From a virus (taxonomy: Duplodnaviria > Heunggongvirae > Uroviricota > Caudoviricetes): a stretch of DNA of 64,000 nucleotides. The stretch lies in the IMG/VR virus record IMGVR_UViG_2681813318_000003; one strand, given 5' to 3'. The notes under the pieces are model-generated. The model was not told the origin of the DNA. It did not search any database and worked only from the letters and a program-made list of their open reading frames with translations. Within the stretch, counting starts at the first letter, position 1. Each line of letters opens with the position of its first letter. A program made the position numbers and the translations under genes. Of the stretch, positions 915 to 63,067 are shown piece by piece.

Positions 915-988
915 TGATGGAAAACTCCTTTTTCCGTTAATTCTACGCATTCATTGCGCTAATAGTAAGTATATACTTACTAATTGAG

Positions 989-1345
989 TTAATTCAATAA
1001 ATAGCCAGCAAATTCAACAGGAATGCCTGCTTCTATTAATGCCCCATCATTTTTGGGATAAATGATTGGCATCGCCATCGGTCGTACAAGTCGAAAATAA
1101 ACACCACCAGATTCCGTTTCCTCTACTGGAAACATCTCAATGATTTTATTGGCTTTCTCAACCGTCGTAGTAATTGACGAACCACGCACAATGATTGTGA
1201 ATGATTCGAGATAAAAGCCCTGTAGCTCATGATCGATGCTGATACCGGTATTTGGGTTAATAAGCAGGACGCCAGATTTCACATTGGCAGGCAAGTAGTG
1301 ACAGAAAATGTCAGTCCCGACCGTGCCAATCTTTGCCTTCTGCAT
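989..1345 (-). CDS. Tail component (possible tail terminator or completion protein)
   Basis: ORF 989..1495 trimmed to the internal ATG at 1345 so it does not overlap the upstream gene; lies between head-tail genes and the major tail gene. Confidence 0.35.
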   Translation of the reverse strand: MQKAKIGTVGTDIFCHYLPANVKSGVLLINPNTGISIDHELQGFYLESFTIIVRGSSITTTVEKANKIIEMFPVEETESGGVYFRLVRPMAMPIIYPKNDGALIEAGIPVEFAGYLLN

Positions 1346-1373
1346 CAAACTTGCAAACGCTTCAATAAACACA

Positions 1374-1847
1374 TTAACCTCTCGTAAATCCGGCTTTTCT
1401 GGCAGCCTCAAGAATCGCTTCTGAGAACTGCTTCTCGCTAATTTCCACCGCTCTTTCCAGAAAGTGTGGCCCAACACGGGGTTTAACACCGGCAATTGGT
1501 GGGTTTGTCACGTTCTTCATTCGAGAAAGATAACCGAGTCGGTATTTACCCAGCTCCATGTACTTAGCATAGTCACCTACTTCTACGCCCGGATGCCCCT
1601 GACGTGGTTTTGCTCCAGACACAGAAAGCTCAATACGCAGCCCTGAATAACCTTCTTTAATCACCCTGGCAAAGATGGCTGTCTCCAGAGATCCGGTTTC
1701 CAGCGGGGCCATTGCACGGCTGAAACGCTCAACCAAACGCGCCAGCTTTTCCATGTCCCGAATAAGATATCGCTTAAATGCTTTCTGGCTGTTGTTGAGT
1801 CTATTCCCCGCACGTTTGAACTGATGCGCATCGTATTTCAGACCCAT
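1374..1847 (-). CDS. Head-tail joining or tail component (HK97 gp10-like, tentative)
   Basis: 157-aa ORF in the conserved position between head-closure genes and the tail terminator. Confidence 0.35.
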   Translation of the reverse strand: MGLKYDAHQFKRAGNRLNNSQKAFKRYLIRDMEKLARLVERFSRAMAPLETGSLETAIFARVIKEGYSGLRIELSVSGAKPRQGHPGVEVGDYAKYMELGKYRLGYLSRMKNVTNPPIAGVKPRVGPHFLERAVEISEKQFSEAILEAARKAGFTRG

Positions 1848-2182
1848 ATATTCGCCCCTACTTCAAGATGCCCAGGTCTTCCTCGTAGCCCCCAGCGGCG
1901 ATGAACACTGGACACCTTTAATTTTTGACCTTCAAGGATCAGTACATCATCAAGTTGTACAGCCGCTTCCAAAGGGACAACTAACACAGCATCAAACAGC
2001 TCCAGACTCGCCTTACCACGACTACCAGAGCTATCAGCACGAACTGACGATTTCTCATTACTCTGTTCGAACTTAACCACGCCGACATTCGTCTTCCTGA
2101 CGAATTGTAATTGCGCCTCACCGTAAACGTTCTTTGCGCCAAAGCGGTAGATCGCAATTTCTGTTTGCCATGAAATATTCAT
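1838..2182 (-). CDS. Head-tail connector or head closure protein (tentative)
   Basis: ORF 1838..2278 trimmed to ATG 2182 with SD-like CAGGGAGAG upstream; synteny only. Confidence 0.3.
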   Translation of the reverse strand: MNISWQTEIAIYRFGAKNVYGEAQLQFVRKTNVGVVKFEQSNEKSSVRADSSGSRGKASLELFDAVLVVPLEAAVQLDDVLILEGQKLKVSSVHRRWGLRGRPGHLEVGANIWV

Positions 2183-2261
2183 GCTCTCTCCCTGTTGTTG
2201 TCGGTCGCTCTCATTACTGGCCAAAAACCCTTTAGACCAAAAGTAAATAATGCGACTGGCG

Positions 2262-3095
2262 TTACGCACGGCGAACAATCATACGGTTGTTGATGTAACT
2301 GACCAGCAAGCGCCAGGTACTACGAGCCACATGCACGTTTGCAGCTTTACCGGTACGGTACATGTTGGTTGTTTCACCGATGGACTCTGACAAAATGCCA
2401 TCCTCTCGTGCTGCGGCTACATCATTGCCATTTGCGATCTCACACGCTTCGTTGACAACGGCAAGCATCAACGCTTCTTTGAAGTAGTCAGGGAACTCTT
2501 CAAACTTCTCCTGCGTCATCTTTTCCCAATCGACTAAATCATGCCGGTACGCTCCATCTGCTCCCCACGGAATGTCATACACATTCAGCATATTTTGAGG
2601 GCGATCGTATCGGTCAAAGTCGATACGTAGAATTTTGCGGATTGAGAACGGTAAAGTTTTAATACGTCTGGTAGCCTCAATGAGACGCTTGCGCATTAAG
2701 CCTTCACCATCCGACAGCAAAGTGTCCCCATTCAGCATATCGATCGCCTGCATTTGAGCATCAGCGACAGTTGCAAACGACTGTTCTGGTATCGACAGTT
2801 CAAAAGTATTCAGCAGAACATACATTTGACGCTCTTCATGCGTCAGGCCCGATGCAACAGCCTTCACAATGACGTACCGCAGATCTCGCTCTTTCTCAGA
2901 GAGCTGGTTATATTCAGCCGACACGACAACCGGAATCGACATTTGACCGTTGGTAATTTCTAGCGGCTCGCCATCAACGAGAATAGCCCCGGTGCTGTCC
3001 TTTACTGTGTAGGTGGCAGATTCGATATCCAGCACGTTGAAGGCAAATGAAAGAGAAACAGCTTCACCGCTACGATACGAGTCGATCTGCGCCAT
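2262..3095 (-). CDS. Hypothetical virion protein (possible head-tail adaptor)
   Basis: 277-aa ORF within the structural operon, start coupled to the stop of the upstream gene. Confidence 0.3.
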   Translation of the reverse strand: MAQIDSYRSGEAVSLSFAFNVLDIESATYTVKDSTGAILVDGEPLEITNGQMSIPVVVSAEYNQLSEKERDLRYVIVKAVASGLTHEERQMYVLLNTFELSIPEQSFATVADAQMQAIDMLNGDTLLSDGEGLMRKRLIEATRRIKTLPFSIRKILRIDFDRYDRPQNMLNVYDIPWGADGAYRHDLVDWEKMTQEKFEEFPDYFKEALMLAVVNEACEIANGNDVAAAREDGILSESIGETTNMYRTGKAANVHVARSTWRLLVSYINNRMIVRRA

Positions 3096-3529
3096 TACTC
3101 ACCACCTTGTGCTTTCAGGATGCCGTCAATCATTTCGACAATTCCTTTCGCTTTGACACCAACCTGATTACCAATAACTCGTAGACCGGCAATACCTTCG
3201 TTGTCTGCAATTGACTCCAGCTCTTCTCGTGTGAAAGTCTGGATCTGTTTGGCCGGTTCATCTGGTGTCCCACGTTTCATTGGCACAATGTCAGGCGCTG
3301 CTGGCTCGGTAATCAGGTCTGCTGTCAATTCACCACGATCACTGTATGCGGCAGACGGAGAAACATTTTTGCCCTCTACTGTTGACGCTCGCATTGAAGC
3401 ACAAATCCTCTGCTGATCGATAAAAGGCAACTCCGCTACGGATACCCCGTTCTCGAACTGAACGCCACACAGCATTCCCGAATAACCGGAAAATTGCGGT
3501 TCTAATAAAACAATTTTTGCTGGTTTCAT
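3095..3529 (-). CDS. Hypothetical virion protein
   Basis: 144-aa ORF, ATG at 3529 with GAGAGAAAG upstream; position between decoration and head-tail genes. Confidence 0.3.
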   Translation of the reverse strand: MKPAKIVLLEPQFSGYSGMLCGVQFENGVSVAELPFIDQQRICASMRASTVEGKNVSPSAAYSDRGELTADLITEPAAPDIVPMKRGTPDEPAKQIQTFTREELESIADNEGIAGLRVIGNQVGVKAKGIVEMIDGILKAQGGE

Positions 3530-3573
3530 AACGCTTTCTCTCTACATGGGCGGCTTTCGCCGCCCAATATTGA

Positions 3574-4494
3574 TTATTCCTGTGCAGCAGTGACTTCTAC
3601 GGTCGCTGTCGCTTTGTGGCTACCATCTTGGGTAGTAACCTCGATTGTGGCAGTACCAGCCGCAACGCCAGTTACAACACCGGTTTCGCTATCAACCGTT
3701 GCAAACTCGGTATTTTTGGATTCCCAAGTAACGGTTTTATTTGTTGCTCCTGCCGGCTCGACATTTGCGGTCAGCTGAACAGTTTTGTTTGCCTCAACGG
3801 TTGTGCTATTTGGGTCGATTTCGACGCCGGTAACAGCCACAACAGGCGCAGTTACTTCCACCGTTGCAGTTGCCTTTTTGCTGCCATCTTGGGAAACGAT
3901 CTCAATCGTCGCAGTGCCAACTTCTACACCAGTAACGTTCCCGCTCTGGTCTACCGTTGCCTTATCTTCATTTTTTGAAGACCAGGTAACAGCCTTATTC
4001 GTCGCATTTGACGGCTGAACATTCGCTTTCAGACTGACTGATTTCCCTTTCTCAACAGAGGTTGAGTCTGGCGTTACCGTTACGGATTGAACGGCTACCG
4101 GATTTACGGTGACTTCCACTGACGCGGAAAGCTGGGTTTCCTGATCAGTTGCAGTAATTTTTACTTTGCCTGGTGCTACACCAGTTACTAATCCAGTGCC
4201 GTTAACGGCTGCAATTTGATCATTAGCTGACTTCCAAGTGAATGAACTGGCACTCTTACCCATACTAATACCTGCACTAAGTTGAACAGTTTTCCCAACC
4301 AAAACTGACGGTGAAGCCGGGGTTATGTTTACGGATTGGGAGAGGGGAACCGCCTGCAAACAAGCAGATAGCTGACTTTGTTGCCGCTCGGTTAAAGGTT
4401 CATCGGAGATAGAATTGGTAAATCCGGCGCGGCACATATGCCCCGTAAAATCCGAAAATGCCTCTTCCGTAATCTTCATCTTTTGTTCTGGCAT
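3574..4494 (-). CDS. Ig-like domain (three Big_2-type repeats) head decoration protein
   Basis: Three tandem about 80-aa repeats of the type VTVTP..SV..G..V.L.A.V.P..A.NK.VTW.S...ATV; ATG 4494 preceded by AGGAG; directly downstream of the capsid gene. Confidence 0.55.
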   Translation of the reverse strand: MPEQKMKITEEAFSDFTGHMCRAGFTNSISDEPLTERQQSQLSACLQAVPLSQSVNITPASPSVLVGKTVQLSAGISMGKSASSFTWKSANDQIAAVNGTGLVTGVAPGKVKITATDQETQLSASVEVTVNPVAVQSVTVTPDSTSVEKGKSVSLKANVQPSNATNKAVTWSSKNEDKATVDQSGNVTGVEVGTATIEIVSQDGSKKATATVEVTAPVVAVTGVEIDPNSTTVEANKTVQLTANVEPAGATNKTVTWESKNTEFATVDSETGVVTGVAAGTATIEVTTQDGSHKATATVEVTAAQE

Positions 4495-4510
4495 TTCTTG
4501 CTCCTACAAA

Positions 4511-4536
4511 AAGGGTGGGCGTATAGCCCACCCTTA
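4511..4536 (-). terminator. Rho-independent terminator or attenuator after the capsid gene
   Basis: GGGTGGGC..GCCCACCC hairpin followed by a T-run on the minus strand, between capsid and decoration genes. Confidence 0.5.
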
Positions 4537-4567
4537 AACATAGATAATTGCTTATCTACCACACTGA

Positions 4568-5443: not shown

Positions 5444-5468
5444 CTATCAATTCCCTTTGATTTAGATG

Positions 5469-6356: not shown

Positions 6357-6377
6357 AAAAATTCCCTTTGTTACTTA

Positions 6378-7952
6378 TCACTCGTTCTCTTGAGTAGATG
6401 AGTCCCCATTCCCTCGGGGTTGATCTTGCCCGCTTTCTTGGGCCACACCACGATCATAAGTAAGTACTGACTTATTTTCAAGGGTATTTAGATCATTTTT
6501 TGGCGGAAAATTCAAGAGATCTTTATCAAATTCCTTTTTCATCGCCTCAGTAATGTTCGGGAAAATCTTCTCAATAAGCATTTCCATCTGGTGACGACGT
6601 ACAGAGTCCGGTGCCTGAAGTAATGACAGTTTCTCGGCAACAGAAAATTCATCTGTAAGGCCACGAATATCGAAACTTTCTGGATACGCAATTAAAGAGT
6701 GGTCTTCGTCCAGATCTACCCCCATCCATTTCGCAACCAGTAGCATGATTTGGCGTTCAGCCCTTTCCAGACGCTCTGCTTTTGTGACAAGCAAGCTATT
6801 TACACGCTGGAAGTCATACATTTTTGCGGCACCAGATGAGTTATCGATTCCCTGTGCGTTGTCCTGCTTCGTTCGCTCACCAGCTACACCAACTGAATGG
6901 TAGATTTCGTTAATCACCGTCTTAATCGTAGTGATGATCATCTGAGCTTGTTTCGGGTCTGGTGACAGATAAAACGGCTGGTTTCCACCTTCAGAATCGT
7001 AGGTGAAGACTCGCTTTGTGCCCATTTCAAGCACTTTAGTGTGGTTTTCATCACCAGGTAAAAGCGACTGTACCGGTATAGCCAACTGGCTAAATGTCTG
7101 ATCCTGAATAATGGCATCAAGGTTTGACAGATAGTTTGCAACCGCACGATCAAGATAAGCGATATCATCGATCAACGATGGGCTGAAATACGGTGATTCA
7201 CTTTCTCCAATACAATCAACAGGAAACACAGGAACTACGCCGAGATTATGCTCACCGCTATCCTCTAAAATAACTTTTGCCTGACGGCGACCTGCTCCAC
7301 CAGCGCCCTTCTTCACTTCCTCACGGAACAGATACCACTCGTTTTGTGTCCACAGACGATAACGTTGGTATTCCTGACCTGTAGAAGTAAAAGGATCTGC
7401 GTCATCACGAGCGACTTCCACAATTAACGCCCACAACATATTCCCGTCGTCGTCCCATGCCACATCCAGCATTTGCTGAGGTGAAATCCAGTAGGCGTAG
7501 GCGCGAGCATCTTTCTTTTTCTCGTCAGCTACTGACTCAACATCACCACTCATCGTGCTATCGACAACAACCCATATGCGACCGTAAATAGACGACTGCA
7601 AATCAATAGCGGCCATAAATAAGTCAATAGAGGCATTCTGGCGAGTCGCACGTTTCCAGAAATTGCGGATCTGCTCTGGTGCCTCTTCGATATTTCTATG
7701 AATGTCTTCTTTAAAGAGATATTTGTTGATGAGGTTTACCACCTCACGAGTGTGGTTGAAGCGATAAGCACGTTCAACTCGCTCCTTAAACTCCTGATCT
7801 CCCTCTTTAAAGTAACGAAAGATATTGTCTGTAAACCAACCACGCCCGCCAGCGTAAGTGCTGGCGAGGAAGTCCCAATGTTCTTTTTTCTTTTCGTATT
7901 CCGGGTGGCGTCGCGCCACCAGATCCTTAATTTGTTTGTCGTTCAATTCCAT
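6378..7952 (-). CDS. Portal protein
   Basis: 524-aa ORF immediately downstream of terminase large subunit; size and position typical of portal. Confidence 0.65.
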   Translation of the reverse strand: MELNDKQIKDLVARRHPEYEKKKEHWDFLASTYAGGRGWFTDNIFRYFKEGDQEFKERVERAYRFNHTREVVNLINKYLFKEDIHRNIEEAPEQIRNFWKRATRQNASIDLFMAAIDLQSSIYGRIWVVVDSTMSGDVESVADEKKKDARAYAYWISPQQMLDVAWDDDGNMLWALIVEVARDDADPFTSTGQEYQRYRLWTQNEWYLFREEVKKGAGGAGRRQAKVILEDSGEHNLGVVPVFPVDCIGESESPYFSPSLIDDIAYLDRAVANYLSNLDAIIQDQTFSQLAIPVQSLLPGDENHTKVLEMGTKRVFTYDSEGGNQPFYLSPDPKQAQMIITTIKTVINEIYHSVGVAGERTKQDNAQGIDNSSGAAKMYDFQRVNSLLVTKAERLERAERQIMLLVAKWMGVDLDEDHSLIAYPESFDIRGLTDEFSVAEKLSLLQAPDSVRRHQMEMLIEKIFPNITEAMKKEFDKDLLNFPPKNDLNTLENKSVLTYDRGVAQESGQDQPRGNGDSSTQENE

Positions 7953-7978
7953 TTGAATAACCTTAGATAATTACTTAC

Positions 7979-9235
7979 CTATCGAGAACCACCAAGAATA
8001 ACACGGTTTTTGACTGGATACCTACGATGTACTGGATAGCCCAATGCGTCTGCACTATGCTCAATGCCACCTGTCTTATCCATATCTCGTGTTCCAGGCT
8101 TGTAGATGACTTTTTCCAGTGAATCAATCAAATGCTTGCACTTCGGATCGATATACAGCCGGATATCTCCAGATGCGGTCATCAGCATTCGGTTAACAGC
8201 ATTAACACGATCCGCAATTGGCGGGTGCTTTTTCGAATAATCGACACGTAAGAATCCCTTCTCTTTGAATATGTCGACGTCAGACTCCCCGCGAGCATGT
8301 TGGCGATAAGCACCTGCCGGATCTGGAAATATCGTTATCTGTGATTTCCAGCGCCAGAAGCGTCTCTCAAGCTCATCACAAACCTCTGCCGTGTTAGAGG
8401 AAAAGAGCACCAATTCATCAATTGCCCATAGTTCACCATTTGGCTGAGGTTGCAAAATTACGGAAGACATCGGGTCAATGTTGAAGTCCTGCCCTACCCA
8501 TATAGGTAACCGAGGGTTGAACTGAAGCGGTTTTACATGCACGTTACGATCGAACGGGTAGTAAACGCGCCCGGACATGTTCTCAAAGCTGGCCAGGTAC
8601 TCCTGAGCGAACGATTTGGGGTCCATATCGTTCTTAGCAGCTTCAATTTCCGCCGTAGGTACAAACGGAGAATCGGCAGTTACAAACTGCCAGCTCTTCC
8701 ACTGTCCCTTTCTTTGCAGCTCTACGTTCTGGCCTATAGTCCACAGTTTGTGAAATTCCGAGAAGCCTTTTGGCGTACCAATGATCAGTGCACCGCCGCG
8801 TGTCGATGAAAGAGTAGGTCGTAACACCTTGTACCAAGTGTCAGCCTTCATATCCTGAAATTCATCAAGCACTACAAAATGCAACGCTACGCCGCGCAGA
8901 GTGTCAGGCTTATCAGCACCTTTGAGGGCGATCTCCGAACCGTTCTTCAACACGATTGTCATCGTGGTGTCGTTCTTTTTCCTAACCCACTTACGAGGCA
9001 GAACTTCCTGTAGATCGTCCCACAAAATCTGGCGAGCCATCTGGTAAGTAGGAGCGACATACCAGACCCTTTGCTTTTTTTCCTTTGCCGCCGCACGAAT
9101 AATAGTGGAGATCGACAACCGGGATTTTCCCCAGCGTCGACCAGCACAAACAACTTTAAATCGATGCGGAGACTGGAAGACTTTCATCTGTCCAGAATGC
9201 AGTTGCACAAGACTGAGCGAGGACGGGATTGCCAT
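7979..9235 (-). CDS. Terminase large subunit
   Basis: N-terminal Walker A-like VVCAGRRWGKS, ATPase plus nuclease size class, start overlapping the stop of the upstream small-subunit gene. Confidence 0.7.
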   Translation of the reverse strand: MAIPSSLSLVQLHSGQMKVFQSPHRFKVVCAGRRWGKSRLSISTIIRAAAKEKKQRVWYVAPTYQMARQILWDDLQEVLPRKWVRKKNDTTMTIVLKNGSEIALKGADKPDTLRGVALHFVVLDEFQDMKADTWYKVLRPTLSSTRGGALIIGTPKGFSEFHKLWTIGQNVELQRKGQWKSWQFVTADSPFVPTAEIEAAKNDMDPKSFAQEYLASFENMSGRVYYPFDRNVHVKPLQFNPRLPIWVGQDFNIDPMSSVILQPQPNGELWAIDELVLFSSNTAEVCDELERRFWRWKSQITIFPDPAGAYRQHARGESDVDIFKEKGFLRVDYSKKHPPIADRVNAVNRMLMTASGDIRLYIDPKCKHLIDSLEKVIYKPGTRDMDKTGGIEHSADALGYPVHRRYPVKNRVILGGSR

Positions 9236-10040: not shown

Positions 10041-10062
10041 TTTAAATAAGCTCCCAGACCGA

Positions 10063-10329: not shown

Positions 10330-10338
10330 GGCAAATCC

Positions 10339-11891: not shown

Positions 11892-12589
11892 ACAGCCATC
11901 TCCCCGGAAGAGATCTTCTCCGCATATGCCACAAATGCGTCTACCCCGCTTTCTCCCGTCATTTCTTCCATGTGGGCAAGCAAATCACCAACAACAATGG
12001 CAGAGCCAGCAGGAAGCGTTTTAAAGCCCAATACGTCGACAACACGTACTTCTTCCGCTGCAACTTCACGACTGATCTCGGTGTGTTCATCCTTCTGTCG
12101 TTTAGTTTCTTCGCCAAGATCGATAACTAGCGAGTCGGTGTCCATTTCTTCTGTCATGCTGCCAACGAGAACATTCAACTCACGCTCTTCAAAGCCGAAA
12201 ACCTCGATATCGTCCAGAACAAGCGACTCAAGCTCTTTCTGTAGCTTAATTGCATCGTAATCAATGCTGGCAAGTCGGTTATCTTCAAGGCGCTTCGCAC
12301 GAACCTCATCATCACTGAGATCATCGCGAACAATAACCGGTACGCGCTCAAGTCCAGCAAAAATTGCAGCCTCACGGCGGCCGTGGCCAGTAATAATTAC
12401 GTCGTTCTTATCGACCGTAATTGGCTGGTCAAATCCGCGCTTTTTAATGGCTGCGGCTAGATCTCGGATCTGCTGTTCATCATGCTTTTTGGCATTCATC
12501 TCATAGGGAATAAGATCTGCCGGGTCGCGATATACGATTTCAAACTTTTTGGTCATTACATACGCTCCTTGTAGTAGTCGACCAGCCAC
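11888..12589 (-). CDS. ParB-like nuclease domain protein
   Basis: ParB/Srx-type motif ITGHGRREAA (GxxRxxA) near the N-terminus; acidic C-terminal half. Confidence 0.55.
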   Translation of the reverse strand: MAGRLLQGAYVMTKKFEIVYRDPADLIPYEMNAKKHDEQQIRDLAAAIKKRGFDQPITVDKNDVIITGHGRREAAIFAGLERVPVIVRDDLSDDEVRAKRLEDNRLASIDYDAIKLQKELESLVLDDIEVFGFEERELNVLVGSMTEEMDTDSLVIDLGEETKRQKDEHTEISREVAAEEVRVVDVLGFKTLPAGSAIVVGDLLAHMEEMTGESGVDAFVAYAEKISSGEMAV

Positions 12590-13236
12590 ACCAGAGCCTC
12601 ACCAGCGTTCTCCATTTCATTACCGGTGTTAATAGCCTGCTCTTTGATGATGTTTTTTATGGTTTCTGCAACACGATCTGACGCATCGAAAGTTACTTTG
12701 AAGCGCATGGTCTGATGTTCCGCCCCCACACGTTCGGTTTTCTCTCGTTTGTCGGTATCGACAGGCTCATCACTACCACGAGACAACGCCTCCAGTGCTT
12801 CAAGGTCGATTGCCGCCTCTTTTGCTAAAACCATCGAGATTTCGTCGTCATACGGGGCGATTTCAGACAGTTGATAGTCAAGTTCTGACTGAATTTCTTC
12901 AATGAAGCGTTGCAATGCGATTTGGTCGTCTTCACCGTATCGCTCGTTGTCCACCAGTGACATCTGTTTAGCTACGACATCGCTAATTTTGCCCACAGAA
13001 AGCACTGGAACCGTTGAAATTCCTTGCTCAATAGCGGCACGCCAGCGATGTTCGCCGCCGAGGATTTCAAAAAATCCATCTTCAAGTTCACGAGCCAAAA
13101 TTGGCTTAAAAAAGCCCAATTTTTCGATAGAACCTTTCAGTTTTTCAAAATTCTGCGCACCAACCGAATTGGTGTTCCAGGTATTCGGGCGAAGGTTGGC
13201 AACATCAACCTGCAAAATCGTGATTTTTACATCCAT
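12556..13236 (-). CDS. ParB-like nuclease domain protein (second copy)
   Basis: ParB motif ILGGEHRWRAA; start trimmed to ATG 13236 (MDVKITI); paralogous architecture to the adjacent gene. Confidence 0.55.
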   Translation of the reverse strand: MDVKITILQVDVANLRPNTWNTNSVGAQNFEKLKGSIEKLGFFKPILARELEDGFFEILGGEHRWRAAIEQGISTVPVLSVGKISDVVAKQMSLVDNERYGEDDQIALQRFIEEIQSELDYQLSEIAPYDDEISMVLAKEAAIDLEALEALSRGSDEPVDTDKREKTERVGAEHQTMRFKVTFDASDRVAETIKNIIKEQAINTGNEMENAGEALVWLVDYYKERM

Positions 13237-13318
13237 TTTATTGCTACAATCCACTAAGTAATCACTTACTTATTATAATAGCCAAATAACATACAAAAGG
13301 CACTAAGGAAAGAGGTTT

Positions 13319-14880: not shown

Positions 14881-15159
14881 ATGAGTGAAAAGAAAACAAC
14901 TTACTGTCAGGTAGCATTGTCTGATAAGGCCAATGACAAACTTGGAAAGTTTCAAGTGAAACTAAAAGAAAAAAATATCAAAATGTCTAAGGCTGAAGTC
15001 ATTAATACCATTCTGGAACAATTGACAATGGCCGACTTTGACAAGGTTATATCTTCTGTCGGGGCTTCCGCTAAGACTCGTGAGAAAATCATGCGTATCT
15101 ATGAGAACTCTAATATGACAAAGGAAGATCTCGAAACGCTATTAAGCAGATTAAAATAA
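14881..15159 (+). CDS. Hypothetical small protein
   Basis: 92-aa ORF immediately after the helicase stop; Lys-rich. Confidence 0.35.
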   Translation: MSEKKTTYCQVALSDKANDKLGKFQVKLKEKNIKMSKAEVINTILEQLTMADFDKVISSVGASAKTREKIMRIYENSNMTKEDLETLLSRLK

Positions 15160-20266: not shown

Positions 20267-20330
20267 TTCACTCTCCGTAGTGTCTTGATTATTTTTCTAT
20301 TTTATAATCGTAGGTATGTACTTACAATAC

Positions 20331-33026: not shown

Positions 33027-33087
33027 GTGTTTTTCTCTTATCGTTTAGTTATTACATTCTTACACAAATTAAGTAAGTATTTACCTA

Positions 33088-36993: not shown

Positions 36994-37138
36994 GTGGACT
37001 CCATCCAGTGTCAGAAAGAGTTGCGGCTGGCGATTGCCAGCCGCCTTTCTCGTTCCATCCTGGAACTGTGTCTTACCGACACATTGTCATCCTGACGCCG
37101 ATAAGATACATGATTTAATATGATAGGTAAACACTTAC

Positions 37139-37732
37139 TTACCACTTGTTGTAAATAAAACCAATGTCTTTCTTGTGAGGCGTATCGGCTGCGGAAAAAG
37201 CTGCGATCTTCGCGAGTCGATCACATATTTCATTTTCACGATGCCCGGCGTGACCTTTAACCCACTTCCAGCGAACATTATGTCGACTTGCGGCCTCATC
37301 CAGACGTTTCCACAGATCAACATTCTTTACCGGTTTTTTATCAGAAGTCATCCATCCATTACGTTTCCACCATTTCATCCACTGTGTCATGCCGTTTTTC
37401 AGATACTGGCTATCAGAGTACAAAATAACGTTGCATGGATATTTCAAACGCTCCAGCCCGATAAGTGCGCCCATCATCTCCATGCGGTTATTGGTGGTGC
37501 TATGAAAACCATCTGAGAACTCGCGTTCCTCACCACGATACTGGAGAACGATACCGTAACCGCCCGGGCCACCCGGATTTTTAAGGCAAGAGCCATCACT
37601 AAAGATTTTCACGGTTTTGAGCTGGGGATTGAACTCTACGACAGGCGTTGTGGGATTGGTGCGGGGAGAATTTTTGTTTTTGTCTTTTTTGCGAGTTTTT
37701 GCTTGCGATCGGGCTGGTGTCTTCGTCGTCAT
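37139..37732 (-). CDS. Ribonuclease HI with basic N-terminal extension
   Basis: [58 protein letters not shown] align to E. coli RnhA catalytic motifs; start at ATG 37732 with SD CAGGAG. Confidence 0.85.
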
Positions 37733-38316
37733 ATAAACTCCTGAATCAATCGCCGCGCCGATTTTTTTTCCTCGCGCGTGCGCACACGCGTGCGTGTTAA
37801 TAATTATTAAAATAAACAAATTACTTCCCAGAACAGGTTTTTATAAACCTGAACTGAACGAACGAAGTGAGTGAAGTTCACCTCGAACGAAGTGAGAGGT
37901 TGTCTTTTCAGGTAATACTCTCCCAGGGAGGTGAGTATAAAATTCCTCACCAACCTGGTCGTTTCATAACCTGAAAAGCTATGGTCTAAGTCTACTGCCA
38001 GCTTAGACTTGGGAAGTTATGGATGACAGCACCCCAGAACCGAGATCTTCCCACACTTTATGAAGGGGAGTACTGGATTCAACCTCTCGAAACACCCCAG
38101 ACTCGACAATCATAAAGTGACCCTTGTCTCTGCTCACTTTGGTTCCCCCTTCCCCGACACCTATACGGCACCGGTTCTACGCTGGTAGTGAGCTTTTTTA
38201 AACCTGACGCCAGTGACGCTTACCCCCACCCATCAGGTCGAGCCTCCAGTCTACGACTGGAAACTATCATATCTTAGCACTTACAATTCACTTTATGAAT
38301 AGTTTGTACTTATCTA
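37733..38316. other. About 580-bp non-coding region with multiple inverted repeats (candidate structured RNA or cis element)
   Basis: No ORF; alternating GC tract CGCGCGTGCGCACACGCGTGCG, GAACGAAGTGAG direct repeats, CTCCCAGGGAG and TAAGTCTA..TAGACTT palindromes. Confidence 0.3.
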
Positions 38317-39336: not shown

Positions 39337-39357
39337 GATAGGTAAGTGATTACCTAT
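39337..39357. promoter_or_regulatory. Class B palindromic motif (representative copy)
   Basis: GATAGGTAAGTGATTACCTAT, 8-bp arms ATAGGTAA/TTACCTAT, about 12 nt upstream of the Dam ATG. Related copies near 963-982 (perfect 20-bp palindrome TAGTAAGTATATACTTACTA), 4542-4559, 7964-7983, 10003-10017, 13253-13274, 20309-20331, 33070-33089, 37121-37145, 44177-44198, 48890-48913, 53571-53593, 59511-59535, 63035-63062. Confidence 0.5.
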
Positions 39358-39509
39358 TTTTGCATTTGATTTTATGTCTGGCAATCAAATAAAACGCGCC
39401 AGAAATGCAAACGAGAAGCTCTCTGGCGCGTTTTTGTGGTGCTGGGTATGTGATTGGCTTACCCAGCACTATAAAGCTCTCTATGGGCTTTATTTTCAGT
39501 AGGGGGACG

Positions 39510-44163: not shown

Positions 44164-44334
44164 AAAAACCTCACAAAGATAAGTAACCACTTATTCCTTA
44201 AGTGAGTTTACATTTATTGAGGGAACAAGGCCAGATAGATAAAAAAATGGTGGCCATAGGCCACCAAAAACGAATAGTTGTTTCAGAAATTTAACGCGCC
44301 AACGCAATATACACAGATAGATAACTACCTACAA

Positions 44335-45204
44335 TTATTTTTTGATCATTCCGTACATTGCTGAGGCTTTAGCTTGCTCAACAAAGGAGGATAAATCGAC
44401 ATCACTATAGGTTGGAGACTTCAGAATCTTTCCATCGGAAATTCGAAAACCGATCATCTTATCGGTGCCATCAGCATGGCGAAATCCCAGGTCAGAAGAG
44501 TCGTATTTGCAGTTGGCCACAGCATGGCGACGCTCTTCGGCATCTGCAGGCCATAATTTTGTCATGTTGGACCGATGAATTTCGCCAACCAGCTCGACGA
44601 CATTGATACCGAGGAAATCAGCCAGTCGATAGGTCATCATGCACGCCACATAGATTTTGTTCATTACACGGCGCAGTTCCTGAATCAGCTCAGAATCCTT
44701 AACAGTCTTGTTCTCAAGTTTATCTGCCAGCTCTTCGAGCATACATGACGCCTCACGAGCTTCCTGAAATGGCATTGCCATATCATCGAAAACAGTGTTA
44801 CCAGGCACAAAAATTGTCTGCATAAAGCGATCAATGCTCTGTTCCTGCGTGTAATAGGTCATGCCGGTAGAAATACCACCTTTGATGGCGACCATCGTAC
44901 CAACACCAACGTATAAAAAGTCGGCCATTGCATCCAGCAGTTGCTCAATATCCCCATTCATTGCGGCTGGAATACCTTCCACTACAGCTTCTTCATGAAT
45001 CAGGCTTGCACGGAGACGAAGCAGCTCTGGTGTCGGCATAACGCGTCTCGGATGCTGGAAGAGTTCATGAAACTGATCGACCATCTTGTAAATACTTTCA
45101 GTAGCTACACCATGACCTTCATGCAACTCATATGGTTCTGGCTTAAATCCAATGAGTCGATCGGTGGCAAGTTTCAGGTGGTCAGTCAGTTTGGTAAAGT
45201 TCAT
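44335..45204 (-). CDS. Hypothetical protein in nucleotide-metabolism operon
   Basis: 289-aa ORF with SD AAGGA; no confident motif recognised. Confidence 0.4.
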   Translation of the reverse strand: MNFTKLTDHLKLATDRLIGFKPEPYELHEGHGVATESIYKMVDQFHELFQHPRRVMPTPELLRLRASLIHEEAVVEGIPAAMNGDIEQLLDAMADFLYVGVGTMVAIKGGISTGMTYYTQEQSIDRFMQTIFVPGNTVFDDMAMPFQEAREASCMLEELADKLENKTVKDSELIQELRRVMNKIYVACMMTYRLADFLGINVVELVGEIHRSNMTKLWPADAEERRHAVANCKYDSSDLGFRHADGTDKMIGFRISDGKILKSPTYSDVDLSSFVEQAKASAMYGMIKK

Positions 45205-48844: not shown

Positions 48845-48917
48845 GTATCACCAAATAAAGAGGGCCACTAAATATAGTGGCCCATGTTAATAGATAAGCA
48901 CTTACCTATCAACGAGA

Positions 48918-53461: not shown

Positions 53462-53782
53462 GTGTTTTTCCTTTGTGGTTATTTGATACAAATCTTAAGC
53501 TTGCTCGAGAGGTGAGCAACCAAGACAGCACGGCACAGAAGAACATCAACAGGCATAGTATTACAAAATAAATAGGTAAGTGAATACCTACCAAAATTGT
53601 TGAATGGATTGCTTACAAGGCGGCTAGAGTTTCATTGAAGTGCTTAGATGTATATGGTAGGCAAAAGTCTCATCGTTACATATGAATGAACTATCTCATG
53701 GGTCATGTATCATTTGATATTTTTATTATCAACAATTACTGTATAAGAGGAATTTTCCAAATTGAAAAAGGATTGATTATCA

Positions 53783-54841: not shown

Positions 54842-54918
54842 ATGTCATTTTTCTGTGATTGTTAGCCGAGGCAACGATAACCCACCAGGTGCGCCGAAGG
54901 TAGTAAATGCCTGTTTTA

Positions 54919-55145: not shown

Positions 55146-55162
55146 ATGACAAAGGTGTCCAC

Positions 55163-56792: not shown

Positions 56793-56836
56793 GACTATGA
56801 AATATGACTGCGGCACGTGCCGCAGTCAGTTTGCAT

Positions 56837-57384: not shown

Positions 57385-57560
57385 GCTGCCACCTCTTTGA
57401 TTACATCAAATGCTGAATTAAATACGAGCACGATAGCCAAAGCGTTTATGACTACTTCGTTCACCGGGGAAAATACTTTACGAATGACACCAGTGAAAAT
57501 GCAGTCGATGACAAAAGCTATTGACACGATGAGTAACAAGTATTCAATAAAAATCTTCAT
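57381..57560 (-). CDS. Small membrane protein (below the ORF-track size cutoff)
   Basis: 59-aa ORF read manually (MKIFIEYLLLIVSIAFVIDCIFTGV...); its stop overlaps the next start as ATGA; two hydrophobic segments. Confidence 0.3.
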   Translation of the reverse strand: MKIFIEYLLLIVSIAFVIDCIFTGVIRKVFSPVNEVVINALAIVLVFNSAFDVIKEVAA

Positions 57561-57599
57561 GATAGGTAGATACTAACTTATATAAATTTTACTGTAAAC

Positions 57600-57875: not shown

Positions 57876-57930
57876 GTGTTTTTCCTTTTGTGGTTAGTGT
57901 TTACTTATTTTGTTAGTTATGAATAGGCGA

Positions 57931-58356: not shown

Positions 58357-58404
58357 GTTTTCTTATCCTTTTAAACAAATTGTTTTCTTAATAAGATAAT
58401 TGCG

Positions 58405-58432
58405 ATAAAAAAGGCGTCCAACTGGACGCCTG
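58405..58432 (-). terminator. Rho-independent terminator (GGCGTCC hairpin family)
   Basis: AGGCGTCCAGTTGGACGCCT followed by TTTTTT on the minus strand; same stem family at 59545-59570 and 61877-61906. Confidence 0.65.
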
Positions 58433-58447
58433 AACTTTTTAGGGGAG

Positions 58448-59278: not shown

Positions 59279-59281
59279 TAC

Positions 59282-59482
59282 TTATTTCCCCTTTGCTTTG
59301 ATTAATGAGTTGATAAACTTACGACCAGCAATAAGACCGATTACAGGAGCACCAAAACCAACGATAACTCCAAACATGACGGCTAAATCACTCTTGGTAG
59401 AAATCAGCGACGGAACCAGTAAACCGTAGATGAGAGCCACTGAAAGGCCTGTGGCTACTGCCAATAGATAGATTTTGATCAT
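59282..59482 (-). CDS. Small two-TM membrane protein upstream of the SPFH gene
   Basis: 66 aa, hydrophobic helices LLAVATGLSVALIYGLLV and VMFGVIVGFGAPVIGLIAG. Confidence 0.45.
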   Translation of the reverse strand: MIKIYLLAVATGLSVALIYGLLVPSLISTKSDLAVMFGVIVGFGAPVIGLIAGRKFINSLIKAKGK

Positions 59483-59544
59483 GTGTTTTCCTATGTGGTT
59501 GTTATGCGAAAATAATAAGTAAGTACTTATATATTTTCAAGAGA

Positions 59545-59570
59545 TAAAAAAGGCGTCCTGTGGACGCCTT
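59545..59570 (-). terminator. Rho-independent terminator (GGCGTCC hairpin family)
   Basis: AGGCGTCCACAGGACGCCT followed by TTTTTT on the minus strand, after the RecA-like gene. Confidence 0.65.
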
Positions 59571-59574
59571 GTGT

Positions 59575-60648
59575 TTACTCTTCTACTGACTCGGTGGGGT
59601 TGTCTTTTGCTCTTCGGTCGTCGATTGCCTGCAAAGCCGCAATGATTTCAGCCAGTGGCTTCTCCCGATACATCTCGACGATCTGCGATTTGGTGTATTT
59701 CTTGTCACCAATTTCAACTCGCCCGCTGGCGTTCTTTGGCAGGTATCCTTCTTCCAGCATGTACTCGACGAGCGATTCGATAACGTCGAGGCCACGAGTA
59801 GGATCGAAGTAGAATTTCCAGGTGCATTTGCCATACGGTGGTGCAACTTTGTTTTTGATGCATTCTGCGCCTACGTCCTGGCCGATCTTCTCTTTACCAT
59901 CCTTCATTACCGATGCACCAAGACGGATACGTACAGAAGCGTAGAACTTCGGTGAATCTCCACCTGGCGACGTAGTAGGGTCGCCAAACATTACACCGAT
60001 TTTTGTGCGAACCTGATTCAAGAAGATGATGCAGGCGTTGTATTTGCGTGCCCACAAAGCCAGAGTAGGGAAGTTCGCACTTGTCGCACGAGCCAGTGCC
60101 GTATTGTCGTTCATGTTTAGCTGATCTTTGTCTTTGGCAGTGCCTTCAGCCATCTTTTCGAACTTCTCGGCTTTGGTGTTCGGAACCATAGACGCAAGTG
60201 AGTCAGCCACGATACAGATAGGTGCTGATTCAGGGATAAGCTCTTCATCACGTACCAATTTAAGTATTGTGCCGATCAACTCTACAGAGTCTTCGAAGGT
60301 GTCAGGCTGCTTGTATACCCACTGACCGTCATCCTCATCTGCGTTCAGGCCATTGGCTACAGCCAGGCCAACGTCAAAACTGTTTTCATGATCGAGGAAT
60401 ACCGCCAGACCATCTTGTTTTTGAGCGGAGATCATCGCTGCTGTCGCAAGGAACGTTTTCCCTGCACTTGGAGGACCGAATACTTCGACGATACGACCAC
60501 ATGGGAAGCCGCCATCGTAACGACCGGAAATAGCTTTGTTTAACGGTGGAAAGCCTGTATCAATCCAATGAGTTACTTTCTGAATTTCGTCGTTGCTACC
60601 GATTTTCTTTTTCAGAGCAAGTGCCAGTGCGGATTTTCCTTTTGCCAT
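59575..60648 (-). CDS. RecA/UvsX-like recombinase
   Basis: Walker A GPPSAGKT in a RecA-type core, 357 aa, SD AAGGAG. Confidence 0.7.
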   Translation of the reverse strand: MAKGKSALALALKKKIGSNDEIQKVTHWIDTGFPPLNKAISGRYDGGFPCGRIVEVFGPPSAGKTFLATAAMISAQKQDGLAVFLDHENSFDVGLAVANGLNADEDDGQWVYKQPDTFEDSVELIGTILKLVRDEELIPESAPICIVADSLASMVPNTKAEKFEKMAEGTAKDKDQLNMNDNTALARATSANFPTLALWARKYNACIIFLNQVRTKIGVMFGDPTTSPGGDSPKFYASVRIRLGASVMKDGKEKIGQDVGAECIKNKVAPPYGKCTWKFYFDPTRGLDVIESLVEYMLEEGYLPKNASGRVEIGDKKYTKSQIVEMYREKPLAEIIAALQAIDDRRAKDNPTESVEE

Positions 60649-60650
60649 GA

Positions 60651-60923
60651 TCAGGCTCCTTTTGTTTCGTTGATTCGTTTTAAAGCGGCGGATTCGTCGA
60701 ATACAATCGCATCGTGATTAAGGAGTCTGGATACACGAGCGAGGATTTTTACGACCTGCTCGCTGACTAATCCAAACTCGCGATCTGTCGCTTTCATTCC
60801 GGCAGCGCCCAGAATTGACGGCAGTGCGATGACAGCGTACTCACCGTGATAAAAGACAATCTCTTTTGCCAGTTGGGTGGGGGTGGTTGTAGCGCCATTA
60901 ATAATCGATTTAAGCATTAGCAA
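60651..60923 (-). CDS. Hypothetical small protein
   Basis: 90-aa ORF between the flap endonuclease and recombinase genes. Confidence 0.35.
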   Translation of the reverse strand: MLMLKSIINGATTTPTQLAKEIVFYHGEYAVIALPSILGAAGMKATDREFGLVSEQVVKILARVSRLLNHDAIVFDESAALKRINETKGA

Positions 60924-61861
60924 TACCTTTCGAATGGAAGAACAAACACTTCAAGGTCTTCAAGGAACGAACGGAAATTCAGCTCGTAGCACAGTTGCTC
61001 GAATGCTTTCACGTCACGATTGCCTTTGATTGTTTCGATTTCGGTAGGCGGAAACTTCGTCTCAATCAGGTTCATTAGCGTGATGTTTCTCTTGAACGCT
61101 TCGAGCATTCGACAGCCTGTTTTCTCGTTGAAGGCATTCTTCGCTAGTTTGTTGAAGGCGGTCTTATGGCGTCCTTTGTCAACCACGATTGAGCCGTCGT
61201 TGATGCCGCGTACCATCGTTGCGACACTTCCCCATTCATGCAGCAGCTCTTTCGCACCGCCAGCACCAATGCCACCAACACCGCTAATGTTGTCCGATTT
61301 ATCGCCTTGTAATGCTTTTGCTTCCAAAAATGCGCGAGGAGTAGCGAATCCTGTCAGCTCCGCAAATTGCTCAAAATTAACCTGCTTGTTTTTGGCGTCT
61401 TCGCGCAGGCTTACCCAGCTTACGTTTTCGCGAACTAACTGAAGCCAGTCGCTATCGCCTGTTAACAGATAGATGTGTTCAACGGTTGGCTGCGCTGCCA
61501 TGCGGGATACCAGCAGCCCGGCCAGATCATCCGCTTCTGCATCTTTTGCAATGAGTTGGGTAACTCCAAGCGCGGTCATCATTTTGAGGATGTATGGCTT
61601 CTGGATAGCAAAGCCTTCCTTCATCTTTTTCATATCAGGATCGTCGTCGCGATTTGCTTTGTAGTCCGGGTAAAAGTCGCGACGCTTGTCACTAAATCCA
61701 TCCCAAAGAATCATAGGTCGGGCATGGAGGATGGAGGCATAACGACGGACGTTCTTAACAAAGCCGAAAGCAGCCTGTACTTCCATTTCGCCGTTGTGCA
61801 ATTTGTCAGATTGTTGGTGGTAATAACCCAGGCTATTGCCATCTACGAAGAGATAATTCAC
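60917..61861 (-). CDS. 5'-3' exonuclease / flap endonuclease (FEN family)
   Basis: N-terminal LFVDGNSLGYY PIN-like motif and H3TH motif GDKSDNISGVGGIGAGGAKELL; start taken at GTG 61861 after SD GGAAGGA. Confidence 0.75.
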   Translation of the reverse strand: MNYLFVDGNSLGYYHQQSDKLHNGEMEVQAAFGFVKNVRRYASILHARPMILWDGFSDKRRDFYPDYKANRDDDPDMKKMKEGFAIQKPYILKMMTALGVTQLIAKDAEADDLAGLLVSRMAAQPTVEHIYLLTGDSDWLQLVRENVSWVSLREDAKNKQVNFEQFAELTGFATPRAFLEAKALQGDKSDNISGVGGIGAGGAKELLHEWGSVATMVRGINDGSIVVDKGRHKTAFNKLAKNAFNEKTGCRMLEAFKRNITLMNLIETKFPPTEIETIKGNRDVKAFEQLCYELNFRSFLEDLEVFVLPFERYC

Positions 61862-61876
61862 CGGTACATTCCTTCC

Positions 61877-61906
61877 AAAAAGTAAGGCGTCCGTAGACGC
61901 CTTACT
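61877..61906 (-). terminator. Rho-independent terminator (GGCGTCC hairpin family)
   Basis: AGTAAGGCGTCTACGGACGCCTTACT followed by TTTTTGG on the minus strand, after the SSB-like gene. Confidence 0.6.
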
Positions 61907-61921
61907 GGTCACGTAATGGGA

Positions 61922-62950
61922 TTACAGAGAGTCCAGCTCTCTCAGTAGGTCATCCAGACCTTCATCTTCCGTCGCAGATGCGGTTGCTACAGATGTCGCT
62001 GCGACTGCTTCAGACTCTTTGACTGATACGGCAACGGCAGCGGAACTTGCCTCTGGTTTAAATTCAGTTTCAACGGCACGGAGGATTTCTTCATCAACCA
62101 GACTGGTTGGTTCAGAAGCCGGTGTGTGCGCGGTTGCTACAGCCGTCGCTCCTTCTGTATGACCAGTGACAGAGCCAAATCCAGGTAGTGCCGCAGCCGA
62201 TGTTTTCGCGGTTGAGGAAATTGCTGGTGCAGATGCTGCGGCAGTTGGTGCAGCGATGCCAATCAGACGACCCATAGTGCGAACTGTCGACAGAAGACGA
62301 GTTTCATCAGCCTGATTTGCGTATGCGATCAGATCATGCTGAGTGTTCCAGAATTTATCTTCGATATCGCCTTTGTAGACTTTACGCTTAGGCGAGACGT
62401 CATATTTGGTATCGCGACCAGAGCCAGTACGTTTAATCAGGAATGCGTAGCCTTCCTCTTTGCTCAGTGGATTGCCGATATCATCAGCGATGTCTTCGGT
62501 GATTGCTTTGCAGATATCATCGAATACAGTAGACGGCAGCTCGATTAACTGGCATTTCTCAGCATCTGCGAAATCCTCACGAGCAGAAAGAATGCCGTTG
62601 ACCAGGTAGCGAGGAGTGGCACGCATTTGACCGATGCGTTCTTCCATTGCTTTGTTACCCTTGTGACGAGCGCGACCTTCCATCACCATTTCGCATAGCT
62701 GACAAGCGCGACCGTGAGTATGTTGCTCACAAATATAAGCGTTGGTTGCTTCTTTACCTTCCTCGTTCTGATACTTAACGTAGTGCATACCGAAAGTCTG
62801 GAAGAACTTACCGTTTGGGTCGTCTTTATTCGGGAAGATGCGGATATAGTTGACGCCGTCTTTTAAGCGAGTCAGATCAACGTTGTTACCACGTTTGGCG
62901 GCAATGTCTTCACGAGTTTTGTTAAGCAAATCAAGTAATGTCTTAGACAT
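61922..62950 (-). CDS. Single-stranded DNA-binding protein (T4 gp32-like, tentative)
   Basis: Cys/His cluster YICEQHTHGRACQLCE, Ala/Ser-rich linker, acidic C-terminal tail DEGLDDLLRELDSL; sits with recombinase and FEN genes. Confidence 0.5.
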   Translation of the reverse strand: MSKTLLDLLNKTREDIAAKRGNNVDLTRLKDGVNYIRIFPNKDDPNGKFFQTFGMHYVKYQNEEGKEATNAYICEQHTHGRACQLCEMVMEGRARHKGNKAMEERIGQMRATPRYLVNGILSAREDFADAEKCQLIELPSTVFDDICKAITEDIADDIGNPLSKEEGYAFLIKRTGSGRDTKYDVSPKRKVYKGDIEDKFWNTQHDLIAYANQADETRLLSTVRTMGRLIGIAAPTAAASAPAISSTAKTSAAALPGFGSVTGHTEGATAVATAHTPASEPTSLVDEEILRAVETEFKPEASSAAVAVSVKESEAVAATSVATASATEDEGLDDLLRELDSL

Positions 62951-63067
62951 GTGTTTCTCCTTGTTGTGATTTGGCCGATGGCGCTATGCGCGTTGGGCTT
63001 TCGTTCATTCGTGGCTCTTTCGAGCTGTTAAATGATAGATCAGTACTTACTTATTATCTATCAAAAA

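Follow-up and report, generated by a model that had tools for sequence, protein, structure and literature searches.

Dispersed symmetric palindromes in SSU5-like phage-plasmids as candidate operators of a global lytic regulator

Palindromes in the window

A 64,000 nucleotide (nt) stretch of tailed-virus DNA, IMG/VR record IMGVR_UViG_2681813318_000003 and here called the window, carries a short AT-rich palindrome that recurs at gene junctions along its length. By megablast, the window belongs with the E. coli members of the SSU5-like phage-plasmids. Its identity is 98-99% with Escherichia phages CMS-2020a and Cyrano, as well as with approximately 195 E. coli plasmids, and falls to approximately 80% with phage SSU5 of Salmonella and the phage-plasmids of Klebsiella. 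Gene coordinates were transferred to the window from the Prokaryotic Genome Annotation Pipeline (PGAP) annotation of plasmid NZ_JBVDMI010000003.1, which is 98.9% identical. Nearly all of the genes are on the minus strand. The intergenic share is 14% of the window and 12.8% of the related whole plasmid.

An earlier note on this DNA had described about 14 copies of a 20 bp element with dyad symmetry, one of them perfect. The perfect copy is as described, positions 963-982 reading TAGTAAGTATATACTTACTA, a 20 bp palindrome without mismatch. It is, however, atypical of the family, since it has one base fewer than its orthologues (TAGTAAGT rather than TAGGTAAGT or TAAGTAAGT), and because of this loss the register of its perfect symmetry is displaced relative to the family dyad. 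The family consensus is ATARGTAAGT/ACTTAYCTAT, where the slash marks the dyad, with a core of TARGTA-N6-TACYTA and arms of 9 bp that abut. As a symmetric 20-mer it is ATARGTAAGTACTTAYCTAT. The consensus first proposed had a 2 bp spacer between the arms, which had to be given up: TAGGTAAGT-NN-ACTTACCTA has no matches in the window even when 3 mismatches are allowed.

The consensus profile was made from 50 sites in three genomes, each oriented by the direction of transcription. It is symmetric from position -10 to +10, with a flank that is A-rich upstream and T-rich downstream. The largest asymmetries among the 50 sites are G in 40 against C in 33 at ±2, and A in 44 against T in 34 at ±10. An apparent orientation bias in the central bases dwindled to minor asymmetries of this kind after all of the sites had been tabulated.

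Searching the window for AGTAAGT-N4-ACTTACT with 3 or fewer mismatches identifies 18 matches, compared with 1.7 in dinucleotide shuffles. A symmetric position weight matrix (PWM) with a threshold of at least 12 bits gives 21 matches, of which 20 are intergenic (binomial p = 2e-16); 0.39 are expected from a first-order Markov, composition-matched simulation of AT-rich intergenic DNA. This is the scan that had been suggested as a check on the element, and it bears out the intergenic enrichment. For the 98.9% identical plasmid, an iterated symmetric matrix gives 43 matches against 3.8 in dinucleotide shuffles, and TAAGTA is the top intergenic-enriched hexamer, with 44 intergenic and 24 coding occurrences.

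Three of the 21 PWM matches belong to a separate long inverted-repeat element, leaving 18 palindromes, 15 of them strong and 3 weak (Table 1). The recurrence of the element therefore stands, at a count different from that first given. All of the locations that had been named carry a site, although the one at 33070 comes just after the DUF4942 methylase stop codon and not upstream of that gene. Placement at operon starts or between genes is also confirmed, apart from the strong site at 6457-6474, which falls within the 3' end of the portal coding sequence.

The symmetry of the sites is not accompanied by any excess of pairing between their halves. Summed Watson-Crick complementarity of the half-sites is 7.32, and it is likewise 7.32 when the right halves are permuted among the sites (p = 0.51). 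The halves thus vary independently, which argues that there is no selection for intramolecular pairing, and the symmetry fits a symmetric protein on duplex DNA rather than a hairpin, be it in RNA or as a cruciform.

Table 1. Palindromic sites of the window and the genes of two candidate binding proteins
Feature	Coordinates	Strand	Bits	Setting	Promoter-like matches, terminators and orthologous copies
Palindrome	966..983		20.4	Between tail-completion/minor capsid (989-1372) and major tail (168-914) genes	Overlaps minus-strand promoter-like TTGAAT-18-TATACT (997..968); promoter-like match kept in SSU5 and pJN2-26
Palindrome	4541..4558		20.1	Between major capsid stop (4568) and Ig-like decoration gene	Intrinsic terminator 4533..4517 after the site; order of stop codon, palindrome and terminator kept in all lineages
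Palindrome	6457..6474		26.2	Within portal gene 3' end, in promoter spacer, facing scaffold-like and capsid genes	
Palindrome	7964..7981		19.8	Large terminase/portal junction, 20 nt before portal start codon	Syntenic in SSU5, pJN2-26 and divergent lineages
Palindrome	13255..13272		22.7	Divergent ParB-like/helicase control region	TATAAT at 13274-13279 abuts the site on helicase side; junction carries a motif copy in every lineage examined
Weak palindrome	20311..20328		12.9	Between two small hypothetical genes, after terminator-like hairpin	SSU5 orthologue 16.5 bits
Palindrome	33070..33087		27.0	10 nt past DUF4942 methylase stop, 52 nt before gene 32322-33026	Orthologues at SSU5 84179 and pJN2-26 20936
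Palindrome	37124..37141		25.7	RNase H stop codon, 139 nt ahead of gene 36499-36993	Orthologues 31.2 bits in SSU5, 30.7 bits in pJN2-26
Palindrome	38299..38316		17.7	Directly downstream of small gene 38317-38547	SSU5 orthologue 21.7 bits
Palindrome	39339..39356		25.7	21 nt upstream of N6-adenine methyltransferase start codon	Promoter-like TTGCCA-17-AAAAAT (39384..39356) puts transcription start within the palindrome
Palindrome	44180..44197		16.3	25 nt upstream of thymidylate synthase start codon	Orthologues 28.5 bits in SSU5, 28.8 bits in pJN2-26
Weak palindrome	44318..44335		13.2	Pyrophosphohydrolase gene stop codon	
Palindrome	48891..48908		28.3	Upstream of nrdA	Overlaps promoter-like TTGATA-17-TAACAT (48912..48884); site kept in SSU5 and pJN2-26
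Palindrome	53573..53590		23.2	120 nt upstream of sbcD-like gene	Orthologues at SSU5 63081 and pJN2-26 344
Palindrome	57563..57580		23.7	Upstream of small-gene cluster 56837-57384 (= CYRAN_60-62)	Overlapped by promoter-like matches 57598..57570 and 57586..57559
Weak palindrome	57890..57907		14.4	23 nt upstream of gene 57600-57875	
Palindrome	59516..59533		27.1	Promoter spacer, membrane protein/SPFH operon	Follows recA-like gene terminator (59570..59550)
Palindrome	63036..63053		26.3	94 nt upstream of gp32-like single-stranded DNA-binding (SSB) protein gene (61922-62950)	Promoter-like TAGATA-17-TATCAT (63060..63032) over the site
Weak candidate binder, conserved 92-amino-acid protein	14881..15159	+		Directly after helicase gene, in operon with site 13255 promoter	
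Alternative candidate binder ParB1, ParB/Spo0J/Noc-like	12556..13236	-		Start codon 27 nt from site 13255	

The longer inverted repeat is a separate element, found in the window at 9984-10038 and 38653-38711. It consists of CCTGCTTCCGTATATAT, an AT-rich palindromic core and ATATATACAGAAGCAGG, its 17 nt arms being 88-94% complementary. A third copy is present elsewhere in the related plasmid, and copies are also found in SSU5 and pJN2-26. The core of the copy at 9984-10038 is TTAATAAGTTACTTATTA, the centre of which, AAGTTACTT, is identical to the -22 box annotated for LPhot, a late promoter of P1. Possible roles for this element are those of a late promoter, a bidirectional terminator or a centromere-like site.

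Conservation and lineage drift

The motif has 33 matches in SSU5 and 17 in the first 50 kb of Klebsiella pJN2-26, at the same gene junctions as in the window. It is syntenic in more than 150 viral contigs, with 80 portal-anchored and 80 helicase-anchored IMG/VR loci, and in six genome contigs, including one from Y. pestis and two from Kluyvera. A scan of genome contigs with the helicase gave six close loci only. Across 2.9 million viral contigs, the exact 18-mer is found in 78 stretches, with multiple copies only on SSU5-like contigs. The scattered single exact matches look like chance.

Divergent lineages retain the outer TARGTA-N6-TACYTA, with the inner bases altered together at all of the sites. 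For example, in lineage C, with 81-82% identity, position 7 of the half-site is G rather than A in 21 of 24 half-sites. The variant is TAGGTAT..ATACCTA in lineage L082 and TATGTA..TACATA in lineage L087. Even the palindrome copy that lies within the portal coding sequence matches the variant of its own lineage. There is concerted change at many dispersed sites, which therefore points to a co-evolving trans-acting partner. The set of palindromes is real, is specific to the SSU5-like group, and is functionally constrained.

Promoters, lysogen expression and competing explanations

Sigma-70 promoter matches (at least 9/12) overlap 9 of the 18 sites, 8 of these 9 being on the sense strand, compared with 11.7% of random intergenic 18-mers (p = 7e-5). 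An association of the element with operon boundaries and promoter-like sequences is supported. In positions 1-20000 of the window, the best promoter-like match, TTGAAA-17-TATGAT (6481..6453), is on the palindrome at the 3' end of the portal gene, and in positions 44000-63999 the best, TTGAAA-17-TATTAT (59540..59512), is on the palindrome of the SPFH operon. Seven lineages could be compared at the portal 3'-end promoter, having 69-100% identity in the portal protein; the -35 (TTGAAA/TTGATA) and -10 (TATGAT/TATCAT) hexamers are nearly constant among them while the palindrome in the spacer changes. Relative to the dyad, the best -10 hexamer starts at +8, +11, +2 or -14 depending on the family of the site, and each of these registers is kept among orthologues. 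No strong sites are found upstream of rep and parA in the 98.9% identical plasmid, genes that are expressed in the lysogen.

Upstream of nrdA there is also a terminator, at 48883..48862. Its stem starts at 48883, and the -10 hexamer TAACAT ends at 48884. Judging from this arrangement, transcripts from the nrdA promoter-like match would lack the 5' arm of the stem, while transcription reading in from upstream would be stopped.

Per-gene RNA-seq values for Cyrano lysogens are available from the LF82 study (Table S1, PMC9928086), and Cyrano, which is approximately 98% identical to the window, was used as an expression proxy. The lytic genes are almost all at background in the LF82/Cyrano lysogen (PMC9928086 values). 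This holds for CYRAN_4 and CYRAN_56, which lie downstream of the two near-consensus palindrome promoters; CYRAN_56 has zero reads in LB medium. Because these two genes are silent behind near-consensus promoters, the promoters are apparently held off. In one condition expression drops across the palindrome junctions, by a mean of -1.06 compared with +0.41 at other junctions, as from the expressed parA operon to CYRAN_31 and from CYRAN_34 to CYRAN_35. Read-through falls over several palindrome junctions in the lysogen. These drops fit boundaries or roadblocks. In macrophage-grown lysogens CYRAN_12, 56 and 60, all behind palindromes, are up by 4-6 log2 units (6.3 for CYRAN_60), and their upstream neighbours are not.

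The best explanation, with a probability of about 0.5, is that the palindromes are the operators of a global symmetric DNA-binding regulator of the lytic units, most likely a repressor. One phage-encoded protein, dimeric or tetrameric and conserved across the SSU5, pHCM2, pKpn, pSLy3 and pMT1 phage-plasmids, would recognise the palindromes, most copies of which would lie within or beside sigma-70-type promoters heading the virion, lysis, nucleotide-metabolism, recombination and replication units. In the plasmid-prophage state the protein would occupy 30-40 sites per genome and, once bound, would cover the transcription start, the spacer or the -10 hexamer. Where a site is squeezed in between a stop codon and the gene that follows, the protein would also block read-through. 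Each lytic operon would then be silenced directly, as is done by P1 C1 at its dispersed operators.

We infer that the palindromes are bound by a protein and that the outcome is repression rather than activation. Operators are favoured over a promoter class of fixed architecture because the register between dyad and hexamer varies between sites, as is usual for repressor operators but not for activator sites with their fixed register, and because two of the sites fill the spacers of near-consensus promoters that are silent in the lysogen. The earlier note had offered both a strategy like that of P1 C1 and a phage-specific promoter class; for the reasons just given the former is favoured. Homologues of C1 and Lpa were not found. 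The note's idea of a single dimeric regulator is sustained as far as the genome-wide symmetric sites are concerned, through the symmetry of the consensus and the lack of excess half-site complementarity.

A number of observations weigh against the operator explanation. No binding protein for the palindromes emerged among the candidates examined. The conserved 92-amino-acid protein encoded after the helicase gene (Table 1) has, by eye, an N-terminal strand-helix-helix, but its assignment as a ribbon-helix-helix protein was unsupported in profile searches of Pfam, PHROGs and the PDB. The hhalign probability against Arc, Mnt, CopG and NikR is 0.3-1%, and its AlphaFold2 model has a predicted local distance difference test score (pLDDT) of 50, giving no fold support. 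The overlap with promoters is partly built in, as the motif itself ends in the -10-like TATYAT. Several sites have no convincing promoter, among them the terminase/portal junction site and the capsid/decoration site, the latter of which lies upstream of a terminator. In the Cyrano RNA-seq data, there is no systematic rise in expression across 21 palindrome junctions, and the promoter score does not predict de-repression (rho = 0.09). Co-regulation of the flanking genes, another expectation held for the element, is not borne out by these published lysogen data, in which palindrome-proximal genes are not preferentially de-repressed to a significant extent (p = 0.18). CYRAN_34 and CYRAN_81 are downstream of palindromes, yet expressed in the lysogen. 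The quietness of strong promoters could alternatively be caused by H-NS-type silencing of AT-rich DNA. Overall, the expression data are compatible with a repressor and do not prove one.

The palindrome might instead be an activator-dependent, phage-specific promoter element, to which a lytic-phase activator would bring the host RNA polymerase, in the way known for Lpa, Mu C/Mor and P2 Ogr. In sequence, the -22 box of LPhot, AAGTTACTT, is near the AAGT/ACTT core of the palindrome, and the -10-like TATYAT at the end of the palindrome would place its dyad near -20. Many of the sites are without a good -35 hexamer, and the rise of CYRAN_12, 56 and 60 in macrophages, not shared by the genes upstream, is as if transcripts start there. 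However, no Lpa homologue was found (tblastn E > 0.8), the best -10 does not stand at a fixed distance from the dyad, and the motif, being fully symmetric, is without directional information. It is also found ahead of early-type and late-type genes alike. Where the two best sites have near-consensus -35 and -10 hexamers and a 17 bp spacer filled by the palindrome, an activator is unneeded. Such an element is considered unlikely. An explanation in terms of RNA, in which the palindromes act as hairpins for processing, stability or termination, or as translational operators for an Hfq-like protein of the FljA family, is highly improbable. The sites are transcribed, since nearly all genes are on one strand, several end 12-35 nt before a start codon and beside the ribosome-binding site, one scores as terminator-like, and the window does encode a FljA-family protein that is modelled as two Hfq/Sm domains. 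Yet it is sequence and not pairing that is conserved, the half-sites having no base-pairing beyond the consensus and no compensatory pattern (p = 0.51). Hfq-type proteins bind single-stranded RNA rather than an AU-rich duplex. Furthermore, most sites have no U-tract, they stand anywhere from 12 to more than 180 nt from a start codon, nothing in the E. coli fliC leader resembles the motif, and no part of the window matches an Rfam family.

The ParB/KorB/Noc family typically has dispersed palindromic sites of 14-20 bp, and the palindromes may be viewed as loading or recognition sites, akin to the KorB OB sites of RK2, Noc NBS sites or VirB sites, of the ParB/Noc-like protein encoded beside site 13255, ParB1, which would coat or slide along the genome in lytic growth, remodelling transcription, countering silencing or organising packaging. 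Two ParB_N genes adjoin the terminase genes in every lineage. ParB1 has a ParB_N domain (E = 3e-13), matches Spo0J and Noc in the PDB, and keeps a CTP-box-like GGEHRWRAA that resembles GERRxRA. Its start codon is close to a palindrome (Table 1), and in the lineages with a drifted motif it is the fastest-diverging gene of the cluster, at 44-46% identity compared with 68-82% for its neighbours. On the other hand, ParB1 (CYRAN_119) has zero reads in the LB-grown lysogen and therefore cannot be the silencer there. When it is aligned to Spo0J, no helix-turn-helix (HTH) is evident beyond the N-terminal domain. The rep/par promoters, where KorB-type regulators act, have no sites, and the palindromes coincide exactly with promoter hexamers, a placement that loading would not require. 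This role for the palindromes is judged unlikely. A bolder version, in which a ParB/Noc-like CTP-box protein loads at approximately 35 sites on induction, spreads genome-wide and switches promoter accessibility by VirB-like anti-silencing of AT-rich control regions or as a KorB-like clamp turned repressor, and might couple transcription to packaging, is quite improbable. If true, it would be a case of a virus running its lytic programme via a ParB-CTP switch.

Candidate binders, neighbouring features and known systems

With operators as the preferred explanation, the question is which protein would bind them. The 92-amino-acid protein is present after the helicase in all 86 of the 86 loci searched, and its Cyrano equivalent, CYRAN_117, is expressed at 12x background in the lysogen. 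A profile search of 1.84 billion representative proteins identified only 27 relatives, none informative, and co-variation of its putative DNA-contact strand with the motif variants showed no clear pattern. It may be seen as a first, weak candidate for the repressor. ParB1 is, with similar weakness, the first candidate for a lytic-phase factor. Two adjacent ParB_N genes, at 12556-13236 and 11888-12556 and both on the minus strand, are found together with ABC-type ATPase genes upstream of the terminase genes in every lineage. These ParB genes are not a plasmid partition system, because both are at or near background in the lysogen.

Other proteins were considered and set aside. P1 C1, searched by tblastn against DG342, SSU5 and Cyrano, gave nothing better than E = 4. 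For Lpa, the best tblastn match (E = 0.86) is in a Cyrano-specific gene that is absent from the window and from SSU5. The regulator had been guessed to be encoded outside the window. The sole such candidate, the lysogen-expressed Cyrano-type HTH 'putative repressor', is unlikely, since SSU5 has the same motif yet no homologue of this protein; the region upstream of the HTH gene has only a weak core copy of the motif. The half-sites of three host factors look similar, namely SlmA (GTGAGTACTCAC), the NarL heptamers (TACYYMT) and the RcsB box, but they differ in spacing or at key positions. The divergent lineages alter the SlmA-like inner bases.

Within the conserved core, one protein alone is annotated as a regulator, the FljA-family 'transcriptional regulator' or 'repressor of phase-1 flagellin' at 15655-16179 on the plus strand (PF03614, E = 1e-82). 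Its model consists of two Hfq/Sm domains in tandem (pLDDT 80), with Foldseek matches to Hfq at a probability of 1.0 and a root-mean-square deviation of 1.1-1.9 Å, hence it is predicted to bind RNA and was rejected as the DNA binder. Homologues are mostly on contigs of approximately 100-115 kb, the size of phage-plasmids, and the family is apparently largely carried there. FljA has been reported to prevent fliC mRNA translation (PMC2652032). On the basis of its model, the phage-plasmid protein may be an RNA-binding, post-transcriptional regulator of phage genes or of host flagellin. The E. coli fliC leader holds nothing like the palindrome motif.

Some other features of the window and of the Cyrano lysogen can be recorded here. 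The stretch from approximately 38000 to 38130, between the RNase H gene and gene 38317-38547, corresponds to CYRAN_81, an open reading frame of 44 codons that is expressed at 12x background in the lysogen. CYRAN_81 has 97.7% amino-acid identity between Cyrano and SSU5, against a genome average of approximately 80%, and the stretch has no Rfam match; its product may be not a protein but a small RNA. The region at 24156-27447 includes host-type metG, for methionyl-tRNA synthetase, and an ApbC/MinD-like ATPase gene beside a HumD (UmuD-like) gene, and both the ApbC-like gene and the HumD gene belong to the small number expressed in the Cyrano lysogen. Outside the window, CYRAN_43 (Cyrano positions 30268-30822) is expressed at approximately 720x background in the lysogen. 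No homologue of it was found in SSU5 or the DG342 plasmid, and it could be a strain-specific accessory gene or RNA. Positions 1-87 of the window are 100% identical to Stx2 phage sequences and are a repeat with a match in each complete E. coli genome. This stretch is probably where an insertion sequence ends against the phage-plasmid DNA.

Among known systems, the strategy suggested by the palindromes is closest to that of the P1 C1 operator set, binding and repression being supposed here by analogy. P1 is likewise a temperate enterobacterial phage-plasmid in which one short site is scattered at lytic promoters for the direct control of multiple operons (P1 record annotation; PMC10695390). However, the P1 C1 operators are asymmetric 17-mers of unrelated sequence, whereas the palindrome is a symmetric 20-mer, and the P1 control segment has no palindrome matches. 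The late genes of P1 are controlled indirectly, through Lpa, while here one site precedes both early-type and virion genes. P1 has 11 Lpa-dependent late promoters with a conserved 9-bp inverted repeat near -22 that is bound by Lpa (PMC10695390). These are similar in having an inverted repeat, with 9-bp arms, by a -10-like hexamer, repeated about a dozen times or more ahead of genes for virion and lysis functions. They differ in that their dyad is odd-centred and fixed at approximately -22, whereas the palindromes are even-centred and have variable spacing. Lpa-type sites are also late-only, while palindromes precede nrdA, thyA, sbcD, SSB and methylase genes as well, and some palindromes are in the spacers of complete sigma-70 promoters, unlike the P1 Lpa promoters.

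The stoperators of mycobacteriophages L5 and Bxb1 are asymmetric 13-14-mers, oriented with transcription, that occur in intergenic gaps genome-wide and touch stop or start codons. Both stoperators and palindromes amount to tens of sites in short intergenic gaps, often at stop or start codons, but the palindromes are symmetric and often on promoter hexamers. The KorB OB sites of RK2 and the Noc/ParB sites are likewise dispersed palindromes on a plasmid-borne replicon with a ParB-family gene beside one of them. Unlike in those systems, the ParB-like gene is not expressed when the element is a plasmid, its DNA-binding domain is only putative, and there are no sites at the replication and partition promoters.

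In the literature searched, no paper was found with the palindrome motif or with a description of lysogeny or lytic control in the SSU5 group. The SSU5-like phage-plasmids (pHCM2, pKpn, pSLy3 and pMT1 groups) are clinically widespread, occurring commonly in E. coli, Salmonella, Klebsiella and Yersinia, and are carriers of resistance genes. For these, the palindrome offers a means of defining a regulon and a map of transcription units from sequence alone. Used as bait in its duplex form (ATAGGTAAGTACTTACCTAT), it is a direct route to the master regulator, and the lineage-wise drift of the motif is a natural experiment on the co-evolution of a regulator with approximately 35 dispersed sites. The palindrome is also a possible means to induce or to lock these phage-plasmids.

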